A stretch of DNA of 5,587 nt from a virus. Taxonomy: Duplodnaviria > Heunggongvirae > Uroviricota > Caudoviricetes. Positions within the stretch are counted from its first letter, which is position 1, and each line of letters starts with the position of its first letter. The notes under the pieces are model-generated. The model ran no database searches, was not told the DNA's origin, and saw only the letters and a program-made list of their open reading frames with translations. Location of the stretch: IMG/VR virus record IMGVR_UViG_2700989170_000003. One strand, written 5' to 3'. The position numbers and the translations under genes were made by a program. This document shows, in pieces, positions 2,177 through 5,365 of this stretch.

Positions 2177-2209
2177 AGGCCTGCTGGTAATCGCAGGCCT
2201 TTTTATTTG
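2177..2209 (+). terminator. Intrinsic terminator, lambda tR2-like
   Basis: Perfect 8-bp stem AGGCCTGC (2177-2184) / GCAGGCCT (2193-2200), 8-nt loop, then TTTTTATTT. Lies between the replication gene and ninB, where lambda has tR2. Confidence 0.7.
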
Positions 2210-2224
2210 GGGGAGAGGGAAGTC

Positions 2225-2665
2225 ATGAAAAAACTAACCTTTGAAATTCGATCTCCGGCACATCAGCAAAACGCTATTCACGCAGTACAGCAAATCCTTC
2301 CAGACCCAACCAAACCAATCGTAGTAACCATTCAGGAACGCAACCGCAGCTTAGACCAGAATCGAAAGCTTTGGGCTTGCCTTGGTGACGTCTCTCGTCA
2401 GGTTGAATGGCATGGGCGCTGGCTGGATGCAGAAAGCTGGAAGTGTGTGTTTACAGCAGCATTAAAGCAGCAGGACGTTGTTCCTAACCTTGCCGGGAAT
2501 GGCTTTGTGGTAATAGGCCAGTCAACCAGCAGGATGCGTGTAAGCGAATTTGCGGAGCTATTAGAGCTTATACAGGCATTCGGTACAGAGCGTGGCGTTA
2601 AGTGGTCAGACGAAGCGCGACTGGCTCTCGAATGGAAAGCGCGATGGGGAGACAGGGCGGCATGA
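2225..2665 (+). CDS. ninB: NinB (Orf-family recombination protein)
   Basis: 146-aa product [23 protein letters not shown]... matches lambda NinB as I remember it. GGGAGAGGGAAG Shine-Dalgarno precedes ATG 2225; the ORF-track start at 2207 is an upstream in-frame extension. Confidence 0.93.
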
Positions 2666-2844
2666 GACGACAGCGACGAAGTTTCACCGACATCATCTGC
2701 GAAAACTGCAAATACCTTCCAACGAAGCGCTCCAGAAATAAACGCAAGCCAATCCCAAAAGAATCTGACGTAAAAACCTTCAATTACACGGCTCACCTGT
2801 GGGATATCCGGTGGCTTAGAGAACGTGCGAGGAAAACAAGGTGA
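2662..2844 (+). CDS. ninE: NinE
   Basis: 60-aa product [23 protein letters not shown]... matches lambda NinE from memory. ATG 2662 overlaps the ninB stop (ATGA). Confidence 0.88.
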
Positions 2845-3011
2845 TTGACCCAAATCGAAGTTACGAACAAGAAAGCGTCGAGCGGGCTTTAACGTGCGCT
2901 AACTGCGGTCAGAAACTGCATGTGCTGGAAGTTCACGTGTGCTCCGATTGCTGCGCAGAACTGATGAGCGATCCGAATAGCTCAATGTACGAGGAAGAAG
3001 ACGATGAATGA
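2841..3011 (+). CDS. ninF: NinF-like small Cys-rich protein
   Basis: GTG start at 2841 overlaps the ninE stop (GTGA), with GAGGA about 7 nt upstream. 56-aa product [42 protein letters not shown]... resembles lambda NinF. Absent from the ORF track because of the GTG start and short length. Confidence 0.78.
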
Positions 3012-3726
3012 GTTAATAAATGGCAATGCCATCAAAATGACAAGCATTGAAATCGCTGAGTTGGTGGGTAAGCGTCATGACAATGTGAAACGTACCATCG
3101 AAACGCTGGCTAAAAATGGTGTTATCCGGCTTCCTCAAATTGAGGTTTCCGAAAGAATCAATAACTTAGGGTTCAATGTTCAGTACGAGCATTACGTCTT
3201 CGAGGGCGAACAAGGTAAGCGAGACAGTATTGTCGTTGTTGCCCAGTTGTCGCCAGAGTTCACCGCTCGCCTTGTTGACCGCTGGCGAGAGCTTGAAGAA
3301 GCTGCGGTTAATATCCCCAAAACGCTACCGGAAGCGTTGCGCCTTGCTGCCGATCTTGCTGAGCAGAAAATGCAACTGGAAAACCAGCTCGCAATTGTCG
3401 CACCTAAAGTTGAGTTTGCCGATCGCGTTGGCGAGGCCAGCGGAATTTTGATTGGAAACTTTGCAAAGGTTGTTGGTATTGGTCAAAACAAACTGTTTGC
3501 GTGGATGCGTGATCACAAAATCCTTATTGCTTCAGGTTCCCGGCGCAATGTGCCAATGCAGGAATATATGGATCGCGGCTATTTCACAGTGAAAGAAACA
3601 GCGGTCAACACAAATCACGGAATACAGATATCGTTCACCACAAAAATCACCGGGCGCGGTCAACAGTGGCTGACCAGAAAGTTGCTCGATAACGGAATGC
3701 TGAAAGTAACAGGGGAGGCTGCTTAA
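3004..3726 (+). CDS. Antirepressor-like protein: N-terminal Rha-family regulatory domain plus C-terminal KilAC (Ant C-terminal) domain
   Basis: 240-aa ORF. N-terminus TSIEIAELVGKRHDNVKRTIETL is the characteristic Rha/Bro-N-like signature; the C-terminal half (ALRLAADLAEQKMQLENQLA...KLFAWMRDHKILI...) is KilAC-like. ATG 3004 lies inside the ninF 3' end, with GAGGA about 10 nt upstream. Confidence 0.82.
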   Translation: MNELINGNAIKMTSIEIAELVGKRHDNVKRTIETLAKNGVIRLPQIEVSERINNLGFNVQYEHYVFEGEQGKRDSIVVVAQLSPEFTARLVDRWRELEEAAVNIPKTLPEALRLAADLAEQKMQLENQLAIVAPKVEFADRVGEASGILIGNFAKVVGIGQNKLFAWMRDHKILIASGSRRNVPMQEYMDRGYFTVKETAVNTNHGIQISFTTKITGRGQQWLTRKLLDNGMLKVTGEAA

Positions 3727-4059
3727 TGGCTAACCTACGCAAAGAAGCACGCGGCAGAGAATGCCAGGTACGTATTTACGGCGTATGCAATGGCNNNNNN
3801 NNNNNNNNNNNNNNNNNNNNNNNNNNNNNNNNNNNNNNNNNNNNNNNNNNNNNNNNNNNNNNNNNNNNNNNNNNNNNNNNNNNNNNNNNNNNNNNNNNNN
3901 NNNNNNNNNNNNNNNNNTGCATGGGCTTGTAGTGCGTGTCACGATGAAATCGACCGACGCACCCATAATCTCGACAACAAAGACGCCAGACTTTACCACC
4001 TCGAAGGCGTGATCAGAACGCAGGCGATACTGCTGAGGGAGGGGAAGATTAAGTCATGA
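3726..4059 (+). CDS. ybcO: YbcO-like (DUF1364) putative metal-binding nuclease; CDS interrupted by an N-run
   Basis: N-terminal MANLRKEARGRECQVRIYGVCNG and C-terminal ACSACHDEIDRRTH...EGKIKS both resemble DLP12 YbcO. The two parts are in different frames across the 123-N gap. Start overlaps the upstream stop (TAATG); stop overlaps the rusA start. Confidence 0.72.
3795..3917. other. Run of 123 N (assembly gap or masked bases) inside the ybcO-like gene
   Basis: Direct observation: n at every position 3795-3917. Confidence 0.99.
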
Positions 4060-4418
4060 ACGAATATCAGTTTGTGCTTCCATACCCGCCGTCGGTGAAT
4101 ACCTACTGGCGAAGACGGGGAAGCCAATATTACATAAGCGATAAAGGCCAGAAATACCGAAAAGACGTTCAGCAAATCATCCGCCAACTCAAGTTAGACA
4201 TTTTCACCAAATCACGACTCCGCATCAAAGTCATCGCAGACGTTCCAGACTCCCGCCGCCGCGACCTCGACAACATCCTGAAAGGTTTACTCGACTCCCT
4301 TATCCACGCCGGATTTGCGGAAGACGACGAGCAATTCGATGACATTCGCGTAATTCGTGGTGTGAAAGTACCAGGCGGACGGCTTGGAATAAAAATCACC
4401 GAACTGGAGAACGCATGA
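4056..4418 (+). CDS. rusA: RusA Holliday-junction resolvase
   Basis: 120-aa product; motifs PPSVNTYW, RRRDLDN and GGRLGIKITE are colinear with E. coli RusA. ATG 4056 overlaps the ybcO stop (ATGA), with GAGGGAGGGG upstream. Confidence 0.93.
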   Translation: MNEYQFVLPYPPSVNTYWRRRGSQYYISDKGQKYRKDVQQIIRQLKLDIFTKSRLRIKVIADVPDSRRRDLDNILKGLLDSLIHAGFAEDDEQFDDIRVIRGVKVPGGRLGIKITELENA

Positions 4419-4603
4419 ACGCCACAATTCAAACGATACCAGAGCTTCTTATCCAGACACGAGGCAATCAGACCGAAGTGGCAAGGATGCTTTCCTGCGC
4501 AAGAGGAACAGTGCTCAAGTACAACCGAGACAGCAAAGGCGAGCGTCACGTAATAGTTAACGGCGTCCTGATGGTCAAACAGGGCAAGAGGGGAAGACGA
4601 TGA
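4415..4603 (+). CDS. ninH: NinH (small HTH protein)
   Basis: 62-aa product; ...GNQTEVARMLSCARGTVLKYNRD...VIVNGVLMV matches lambda NinH from memory. ATG 4415 overlaps the rusA stop (ATGA), with GGAGA 4 nt upstream. Confidence 0.85.
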   Translation: MNATIQTIPELLIQTRGNQTEVARMLSCARGTVLKYNRDSKGERHVIVNGVLMVKQGKRGRR

Positions 4604-5223
4604 GACTAGAAAGCGTAGCTAAATTTCATTCGCCAAAAAGCCCGATGATGAGCTACTCACCACGGGCTACGGCTTCTGACTCTCTTTCCGGTACTGATGT
4701 GATGGCTGCTATGGGGATGGCGCAATCACAAGCCGGATTCGGCATGGCTGCATTCTGTGGTAAGCACGAACTCAGCCAGAACGACAAACAAAAGGCTATC
4801 AACTATCTGATGCAATTTGCACACAAAGTATCGGGGAAATACCGTGGTGTGGCAAAGCTCGAAGGAAATACTAAGGCAAAGGTACTGCAAGTGCTCGCAA
4901 CATTCGCTTATGCGGATTATTGCCGTAGTGCCGCGACGCCGGGCGCAAGATGCAGAGATTGCCACGGTACAGGCCGTGCGGTTGATATAGCCAAAACAGA
5001 GCAGTGGGGGAGAGTTGTTGAGAAAGAGTGCGGAAGATGCAAAGGTGTCGGCTATTCAAGAATGCCAGCAAGCGCTGCATATCGCGCTGTAACGATGCTA
5101 ATCCCAAACCTTACCCAACCCACCTGGTCACGCACTGTTAAGCCGCTGTATGACGCTCTGGTGGTGCAATGCCACAAAGAAGAGTCAATCGCAGACAACA
5201 TTTTGAATGCGGTCACACGTTAG
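4600..5223 (+). CDS. Q: Late-gene antiterminator Q (lambda-type)
   Basis: 207-aa product MRLESVAKFHSPKSPMMS...CRDCHGTGRAVD...CGRCKGVGYSR is near-identical to lambda Q as I recall it, including the zinc-finger Cys motifs. ATG 4600 overlaps the ninH stop (ATGA). Confidence 0.95.
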   Translation: MRLESVAKFHSPKSPMMSYSPRATASDSLSGTDVMAAMGMAQSQAGFGMAAFCGKHELSQNDKQKAINYLMQFAHKVSGKYRGVAKLEGNTKAKVLQVLATFAYADYCRSAATPGARCRDCHGTGRAVDIAKTEQWGRVVEKECGRCKGVGYSRMPASAAYRAVTMLIPNLTQPTWSRTVKPLYDALVVQCHKEESIADNILNAVTR

Positions 5224-5265: not shown

Positions 5266-5306
5266 TTGACTTTTTGAATAAAGTTGGGTAAATTTGACTC
5301 AACGAT
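5266..5306 (+). promoter_or_regulatory. Late promoter pR' with qut (Q-utilisation) site
   Basis: -35 TTGACT (5266-5271), 17-bp spacer, -10 TAAATT (5289-5294), then the pause-inducing AACGAT element (5301-5306). This matches the lambda pR'/qut arrangement immediately downstream of Q. Confidence 0.78.
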
Positions 5307-5327: not shown

Positions 5328-5365
5328 AAAGCCCTGAGTTAATAGCTCGGGGCTTTTTGCGTTTT
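5328..5365 (+). terminator. Intrinsic terminator about 30-60 nt downstream of the pR' start (tR'-like)
   Basis: 8-bp stem GCCCTGAG (5331-5338) / CTCGGGGC (5346-5353) with one G-U pair, 7-nt loop, then TTTTTGCGTTTT; an AAA tract sits upstream. Confidence 0.55.

Follow-up and report, generated by a model that had tools for sequence, protein, structure and literature searches.

The nin region of the phage DNA studied here raises the question of what a two-domain gene lying between ninF and ybcO does there. The DNA is one strand of 5,587 nucleotides from a virus of the Caudoviricetes (IMG/VR record IMGVR_UViG_2700989170_000003), to which, at its full length, we refer as the window, and the gene in question, at 3004-3726, had in a preliminary description been regarded as an antirepressor-like gene carried as accessory cargo and possibly cross-inducing co-resident prophages. 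We found that this gene is roi, which received its name in 1996, was already studied 30 years ago and encodes a DNA-binding regulator known from lambdoid phages. We further consider it likely that roi, as a delayed-early gene of HK022-, P22- and Shiga toxin (Stx)-type lambdoid phages, gives rise to a regulator of lytic growth that has two domains, binds DNA in a sequence-specific manner and has an operator within its own coding sequence.

The limits of the gene were as first given, with the open reading frame (ORF) on the plus strand starting at an ATG at 3004 and ending with TAA at 3724-3726, thereby encoding 240 aa. Using megablast, the nearest phage record was CUS-3, the roi of which (annotated 'roi: DNA-binding protein') shares 99.3% nucleotide and 99.6% amino-acid identity with the window gene, followed by the roi genes of HK633, HK620, HK140, N7 and Kapi1 at about 98%. 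Many Stx1 and Stx2 phages came next, their roi genes reaching about 97% and being annotated 'DNA-binding protein Roi', a label also given to the roi of HK620 (98% nucleotide identity). Aligned over 240 of 241 residues, HK022 Roi and the window protein shared 88% identity (E = 4e-157), rising to about 98% from residue 66 on, while the PHROGs collection placed the whole protein in phrog_63, 'anti-repressor Ant' (E = 9e-100). The window ORF is the ortholog of roi of CUS-3, HK620 and HK022. At a minimum of 80% nucleotide identity, 220 phage records contained the same gene, as did 1112 of 5426 complete Escherichia coli genomes (about 20%), which rules out a chance ORF. The window as a whole was closest to phage mEp043, at 97.6% identity over 84% of its length. 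The features of the gene that are used in the following are listed here.

3004-3726, plus strand: roi coding sequence including the stop codon (ORF list; identity to CUS-3 and HK022 roi)
2991-2995, plus strand: GAGGA Shine–Dalgarno sequence, 8 nt before the roi ATG and within the end of ninF (read from the sequence)
3037-3300, plus strand: Rha-type domain at the N-terminus, aa 12-99, predicted to be a winged helix-turn-helix (PF09669 Phage_pRha)
3067-3198, plus strand: hypervariable patch distinguishing the roi alleles, aa 22-65 (DNA alignment with HK022 and CUS-3; protein alignments)
3076-3114, plus strand: predicted recognition helix, aa 25-37, HDNVKRTIETLAK (low-confidence AlphaFold2 model; its class tracks the palindrome class)
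3133-3145, no strand: perfect 13-bp palindrome CCTCAA-A-TTGAGG in codons 44-48, candidate Roi operator (allele comparison, codon statistics)
3156-3168, plus strand: integration host factor (IHF) consensus core AATCAATAACTTA (WATCAANNNNTTR), after an A-rich tract and encoding I52-N-N-L55 (consensus match)
3379-3687, plus strand: C-terminal ANT/KilAC domain, aa 126-228 (PF03374)

HK022 Roi (Clerget & Boccard 1996, J Bacteriol 178:4077, as cited in PMC4587872 and PMC3430580) is described in the two citing papers as a DNA-binding protein that affects lytic growth in IHF mutants, and Roi is also implicated in lytic growth, with the Roi of Stx phages sharing only its N-terminal 125 aa with that of HK022 (PMC3430580). 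Wild-type HK022 Roi blocks lytic growth in IHF-deficient hosts, a phenotype that for Roi is known from HK022 only. Rha, after which the N-terminal domain is named, shows this phenotype as well, its product blocking phage growth in IHF-defective hosts. Work on Roi from 1996 reportedly found a helix-turn-helix in the protein and a binding site for it in its own gene, closely linked to an IHF site; IHF is said to stabilize the binding of Roi, and the mutants that grow on IHF-deficient hosts are said to carry single amino-acid changes in roi.

The two-domain architecture that had been proposed was confirmed by hidden Markov model search, with both domains passing their Pfam cut-offs. For PF09669 (Phage_pRha), with its cut-off at 29.9 bits, the score was 36.7 and the match extended over the entire profile (1-91), and PF03374 scored 113.5 bits against 25.3, covering profile positions 1-106 of 108. 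The NCBIfam model TIGR02681 (phage_pRha), by comparison, missed its cut-off, reaching 18 bits against 45.95 over aa 12-36 only, and by its sequence the N-terminal domain of Roi represents a diverged lineage within the Rha family, the domain of which contains a winged helix-turn-helix (PMC8951638). An AlphaFold2 model made from a 38-sequence alignment (predicted local distance difference test, pLDDT, 42; predicted template modelling score 0.35) gave, at low confidence, a strand–helix–helix–strand–strand topology, with pLDDT of 59-80 at aa 11-70. Searching the Protein Data Bank by sequence gave no match with the single protein, and a 13-sequence profile gave noise at E about 1.

A homologue search returned 120 database proteins, all at least 84% identical to the window protein, among which at least seven N-terminal allele classes could be recognized. 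Two stretches held most of the variation between roi alleles, namely aa 22-65 and the linker (about aa 99-125), with the KilAC half being almost invariant among the E. coli alleles. It is within the first of these variable stretches, downstream of the predicted recognition helix, that the palindrome and the IHF core are found.

The palindromes of the roi alleles lie at gene offset +130 to +142 and typically have 6-bp arms around a 1-nt centre. Their arms change between alleles yet remain complementary, at the same position, as seen with the following variants.

WGPS6: CCTGCA-T-TGCAGG
HK022: CTGCA-T-TGCAG, at record positions 34785-34795, followed by the IHF core at 34807-34819
Allele G: ACTCCG-C-CGGAGT
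Allele H: CCCCCA-A-TGGGGG
Allele B: as allele H, with one mismatch
CUS-3: CCTCAA/TTGAGG arms, the same as in the window
Cronobacter ENT47670 and Klebsiella KpV79: TCCTCAA-A-TTGAGGA
Salmonella SSU5: CTTTTCCACCA-A-TGGTGGAAAAG, with arms CCACCA/TGGTGG
ICP1 gp112: CCCCA-G-TGGGG
S100: CCTCAA-TT-TTGAGG
APSE-7: TCCTCA-ATC-TGAGGA
Vibrio 1.231.O: GCTCA-GAT-TGAGC

The probability of obtaining the palindrome by synonymous codon choice alone, given the encoded peptide, was 0.004-0.02 per gene, and 6-pair palindromes occurred in 0-10% of the other 42-nt windows of the same genes. In the 40-kb genome of CUS-3 the perfect palindrome occurred once only, in roi. Both the palindrome and the IHF core were absent from the 933W-like allele E.

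Further candidate sites were considered and set aside. Extra operator copies in CUS-3 came down to one site with two mismatches, within chance expectation (3 matches against 1.18 expected), and two weak sites in the window, at 249-261 and 3403-3415 with two to three mismatches, were unconvincing as further operators; the number of such palindrome-like sites in the window was not convincingly above chance. The first of them, TCTCAATCTGAGG, is a relative of the palindrome with two to three mismatches that is nearly identical to the APSE-7 version, with the ATG of the primase-helicase gene, at 267, only a few bases further on. Other palindromes within roi, at +17, +456, +486 and +579, were uninformative, since the E. 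coli alleles do not differ in the DNA around them and ENT47670 has not retained them.

The IHF core begins 10 bp downstream of the palindrome and was the only match to the consensus in the window. Aligned with HK022 and CUS-3, it formed an island of identity inside the variable patch, and the consensus recurred at the same offset, as a single match each, in CUS-3, HK022, WGPS6 and EH2197. The synonymous positions of its codons ATC, AAT and TTA were fixed in six of six alleles, with the third base of the next codon, GGN, being variable, and such frozen synonymous codons point to constraint on the DNA of the IHF core itself. The same module of about 25 nt, TTTCCGAAAAAATCAATAACTTAGGG, encoding EKINNLG, is carried by P22 rha (L104:3076-3681), although P22 rha is in other respects remote from roi and belongs to a different operon. 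Judged from these comparisons, the palindrome and the IHF core are under selection that acts on the DNA itself, and they probably correspond to the published Roi and IHF sites.

We found the class of the predicted helix to track the class of the palindrome arms, even in genes that are only 33-44% identical (KpV79, ICP1) and across phages of both enterobacteria and Vibrio, with the combinations being as follows.

Helix HDNVKRTIE with arms CTCAA: KpV79, ENT47670 and APSE-7
Helix NVK[IV]SI with arms CTGCA
Helix DKVKQS with arms CCCCA: ICP1
Helix ANIIRS with arms ACTCCG

From this pairing, the palindrome at 3133-3145 is probably Roi's own operator. A mechanism may then be proposed in which Roi is made from the delayed-early transcript, whereupon a Roi dimer would bind the palindrome in its own gene using the recognition helix (aa 25-37) of the Rha-type winged helix-turn-helix, while IHF would bind and bend the adjoining site, thereby modulating the Roi complex. 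Each roi allele would be one cassette that carries its own helix and operator as a pair. The complex could tune the expression of roi, or read-through towards Q, or both, and such tuned read-through or autoregulation would make lytic growth sensitive to IHF, as in HK022. The KilAC domain may serve in oligomerization or as an effector. The palindrome and IHF core provide a concrete, testable model of DNA recognition by Roi and Rha and of the IHF dependence that both impose on phage growth. Because Stx phages have stx downstream of Q, and thus of roi, this model may also be relevant to when the toxin is expressed.

Several points weigh against this reading. The IHF core encodes a conserved I-N-x-L-G, and part of its conservation may therefore be at the protein level. 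The helix assignment is tentative, the AlphaFold2 model being as poor as it is (pLDDT 42). The proposed code is also imperfect, with SSU5 combining an A-like helix (DSVKRTIERL) with B/H-like arms, and with no more than about 30 nt separating helix and palindrome, their pairing among the close E. coli alleles is confounded by linkage. No clear palindrome was seen in P22 rha, Acinetobacter AP22 or Vibrio 1.162.O. The step of roadblock or autoregulation, finally, is pure inference.

To these should be added that the folded RNA of allele H has a strong hairpin with an 11-bp stem (z = -3.8), which bears on a different explanation of the palindrome, namely that it acts as an RNA or single-stranded-DNA hairpin, for example in processing, pausing or stability of the delayed-early transcript, or is the site of another protein, and not as the Roi operator. 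A stem of at least 5 bp was indeed present in the predicted minimum-energy fold of every allele, and the palindromes of SSU5 and of the stand-alone Rha genes described below are 22-23 nt long. In five of six alleles, however, the regional folding z was unremarkable (-0.5 to -1.3, and +0.3), and in most classes the complementarity runs up to a centre of 0-2 nt, where RNA cannot pair, which instead fits dyad-symmetric recognition of duplex DNA. The arm sequence, moreover, tracks the encoded helix across very distant genes, something that a hairpin would not need. We consider the hairpin explanation quite unlikely, and retain that of an operator for Roi.

Palindromes were also found in stand-alone Rha genes, as perfect 22-bp sequences built on CTCAA/TTGAG half-sites and located just past the part that encodes the helix-turn-helix (ATTCACTCAAATTTGAGTGAAT and CAAAGCTCAACTTTGAGCTTTG). 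The two genes are these.

L088 (metagenome contig ERZ19693148):2076-2504: 142-aa stand-alone Rha gene directly upstream of roi allele G, with an internal 22-bp palindrome
L092:23178-23789, minus strand: late-region rha of CUS-3 (Phage_pRha + ORF11CD3), with an internal 22-bp palindrome

An operator encoded within the gene may, from these sequences, be a general property of the Rha family. Extending this, roi and the Rha-domain genes could be viewed as self-contained specificity cassettes, with the helix followed about 10 codons later by its own private operator and often by an adjoining IHF site, to be used either as an IHF-sensing checkpoint on read-through to Q or for interference in trans that is limited to prophages of the same roi allele; we hold this extension to be doubtful. 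If it is true and the covariation is undescribed, it would amount to a new regulatory layer in lambdoid phages, with a ready set of orthogonal protein/operator pairs. Literature searches gave no description of an internal operator in Rha or Roi within the accessible literature, and of the present results only the covariation, seen between alleles as well as between distant phages, may be new. As an observation on the contig ERZ19693148, its nin region holds close together the stand-alone pRha gene, roi and, further downstream, a Bro-N protein and an AntA/KilAC protein.

The block that Roi exerts on phage growth in IHF-deficient hosts, together with a cis site inside its own gene, could also suit a prophage exclusion or abortive-infection factor with a self-immunity site, by analogy with BstA-type KilA-N proteins. 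Against this, PADLOC gave 0 families at E <= 0.01, the promoter scan found no promoter from which roi could be expressed by a repressed prophage, and in the Gally prophage of LF82 roi is listed merely among five regulators. We regard a function of this kind as exceedingly improbable.

With the gene being roi, and its studied ortholog being described as a DNA-binding protein, the antirepressor identity given in the preliminary description was not borne out, although the two domains on which it had been built were. The label is a transfer of the KilAC family name. KilAC is also found in P7 Ant1, a real antirepressor, in KilA and in Listeria AriS, proteins with differing activities. KilA is a host-killing protein in which KilAC follows a KilA-N domain, and in the Listeria AriS family KilAC follows AntA/B, Bro-N or pRha (PMC9043618).

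A true antirepressor would be one in which KilAC inactivates CI-type repressors, either the phage's own or those of co-resident prophages, leading to cross-induction during lytic growth. Automated annotation does use the names 'anti-repressor Ant' and 'antirepressor KilAC domain-containing protein', but the sole real support was the 54% identity, over 189 aligned residues, between P7 Ant1 and the linker plus KilAC of Roi (Roi aa 61-234), the P7 record stating that Ant1 antagonizes C1 via an Ant1/Ant2/C1 complex. The context of roi argues against such a role. It lies outside the immunity region, has no promoter-like site nearby and is not subject to a private regulator such as Mnt/Arc, a c4 antisense RNA or LexA, and is transcribed only once the phage's own repressor is already gone. 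CUS-3 has roi in addition to a separate P22-type ant (P22_AR_N/C) with a mnt immunity region, and in the Stx phage WGPS6 roi is immediately preceded by a further 'Ant' (ORF6N + P22_AR_C). Full-length homologues at 30-44% identity are furthermore present in the virulent-type phages S100 (Jerseyvirus), KpV79 (Jedunavirus) and ICP1, which are not known to be temperate and would hence have no repressor to antagonize.

KilA, in addition, differs in phenotype although it shares the KilAC domain, and the accounts of HK022 Roi describe a DNA-binding protein, not a repressor antagonist. By Pfam, Roi had no homology to P22 Ant (P22_AR_N + P22_AR_C domains), and our literature searches found no report of Roi binding and inactivating a repressor. 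Evidence of cross-induction did not emerge either, from analyses that did not address it directly. We therefore find a role as an antirepressor very unlikely. This corrects a widespread annotation habit, as 'antirepressor' names given to KilAC proteins are no evidence for prophage cross-induction.

The near-invariance of KilAC next to a varying N-terminal part is also what would be expected if KilAC had a conserved host target, as in a dual regulator of the AriS type, in which the N-terminal domain acts on phage genes while KilAC dampens the host SOS response, probably at RecA, thereby aligning lytic development with other SOS-responsive elements. Such a regulator would be compatible with the DNA-binding model as far as the N-terminal half is concerned. 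Roi has the pRha + KilAC architecture and falls within the definition of the AriS-like family (PMC9043618), and Listeria KilAC alone inhibits SOS upon overexpression, an activity conserved in a 30%-identical homologue (Azulay et al., PMC9043618). That activity, however, was seen in Listeria only and with overexpression only, with none seen at the native level (PMC9043618), and the KilAC of Roi is only about 33% similar to that of a Listeria phage homologue (H109). For Roi we judge it unlikely, and DNA binding at an internal operator remains our preferred reading.

Comparing the window gene with the closest known systems, we found the roi genes of CUS-3, HK620, HK633 and HK140 to be the same allele at 98-99.3% nucleotide identity, with the same palindrome and neighbours; CUS-3 differs from the window in having O/P replication genes as opposed to the Toprim primase-helicase. 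HK022 roi occupies the same slot (ninF and a YbcO-like gene, then rusA-ninH-Q) and has the same two domains and IHF core offset, but its residues 22-65 are those of another allele, with palindrome CTGCA-T-TGCAG in contrast to CCTCAA-A-TTGAGG of the window. Rha of P22 (orf201) and phi80 shares the N-terminal Pfam family, with N-terminal domains that are only distantly related, and the block on growth in IHF-deficient hosts, but is encoded in the late operon, past the lysis genes, and has ORF11CD3 at its C-terminus instead of KilAC. P1/P7 Ant1 shares the linker and KilAC (54% identity for P7 Ant1) but has a different N-terminal part that matches no Pfam family, and P1/P7 ant, with documented antirepressor activity, belongs to the immI region, where the c4 antisense RNA and icd precede it and a C1 operator controls it. 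AriS of the Listeria phage phi10403S has an AntA/B N-terminal domain and a Firmicute host (PMC9043618), and P22 Ant, which is not homologous to Roi and coexists with roi in CUS-3, shares with it only the label of automated annotation.

In the Stx1a phage Stx1_EH2197, roi (2501-3223) is truncated by a nonsense mutation that turns codon 45 from CAA into TAA, and this mutation also breaks one arm of the internal palindrome. Insertions of IS629 in roi have been reported for Stx2a phages (PMC4587872). Together, the nonsense allele and the insertions indicate that roi is dispensable for prophage maintenance.

Turning to the genomic slot, the surroundings of roi in the window comprise the following features.

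267-2147: Toprim/DnaB-like primase-helicase (Pfam)
2177-2200, with outer limits of 2177-2210, plus strand: tR2-like intrinsic terminator that separates the replication gene from ninB (terminator scan)
2841-3011, plus strand: ninF (PF05810)
3004-3011, plus strand: overlap ATGAATGA of the roi start and the ninF stop (sequence; CUS-3 is annotated with the same overlap)
3724-3728, plus strand: overlap TAATG of the roi stop and the ybcO (hkbD) start, with ybcO starting at 3726 (YbcO by Pfam)
4056-4418: RusA (Pfam)
4600-5223, plus strand: late antiterminator gene Q, with which the roi-bearing operon ends (PF03589, 192 bits)

Pfam agreed with the neighbours as first assigned, NinF (PF05810) upstream and YbcO/DUF1364 (PF07102) downstream, and placed NinH between RusA and Q. 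Embedding of the gene in a delayed-early operon, as had been claimed, also held. Both neighbours overlap roi, no sigma-70-like site was found near it in the promoter scan, and Q lies downstream; the tR2-like terminator lies upstream of roi, which makes roi dependent on antitermination. The overlap ATGAATGA, by its arrangement, indicates translational coupling of ninF and roi. Lambda, as stated from the outset, lacks roi and has ninG directly after ninF.

The view of roi as accessory cargo, on the other hand, did not hold, the gene being a standard alternative module of a well-known mosaic slot of the nin region and among the most frequent optional genes of that region in lambdoid phages, as seen from its prevalence and its context in IMG/VR. 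Among 80 IMG/VR loci, all bearing the window's own roi allele and hence used for context statistics only and not for allele diversity, ninF was directly upstream of roi in 77, and YbcO and RusA were downstream in 72; the other roi alleles were gathered from their encoding contigs and from phage records. The annotated order ninB-ninE-ninF-roi-hkbD-rus-ninH-Q of CUS-3 matches that of the window, and HK022 has ORFs of equal sizes in an order identical to that of the window's nin region. Terminator-like hairpins inside roi, at 3426-3442 (plus strand) and 3389-3374 (minus strand), were consensus matches in conserved coding DNA and were discarded.

Some database proteins of 294 aa fuse NinB (PF05772) to the KilAC half of Roi, and in others, 304 aa long, Roi is extended at its N-terminus, both probably being deletion or frameshift fusions in the nin region.

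The replication gene at 267-2147 encodes a 626-aa Toprim + DnaB-like primase-helicase (phrog_239) and is not of the lambda O/P type. Such a gene was found in only 3 of the 80 loci with the same roi allele, and the replication module of the window resembles the non-lambdoid 'Eru' replication modules of Stx phages (PMC8951638). The starts given by program for the ORFs at 2207-2665 (ninB) and 2602-2844 (ninE) are probably too far upstream, with the NinB Pfam match beginning at the ATG at 2225 and the NinE match covering only aa 21-78 of an 80-aa ORF, where CUS-3 NinE has 58 aa; the NinE match and this length together place the true ninE start probably near 2662-2668, overlapping the ninB stop.

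Downstream of roi, the ybcO/hkbD-like gene holds a run of 123 N at 3795-3917, and the YbcO ORF appears split, into 3726-3794 and about 3918-4059. The flanks of the run align to positions just 80 nt apart in CUS-3, and the run accordingly keeps neither length nor frame. After Q come a pR'-like promoter (5266-5294, TTGACT-17-TAAATT) and then, at 5328-5356, a strong terminator, and this is the layout expected for a Q-dependent late promoter with tR'.

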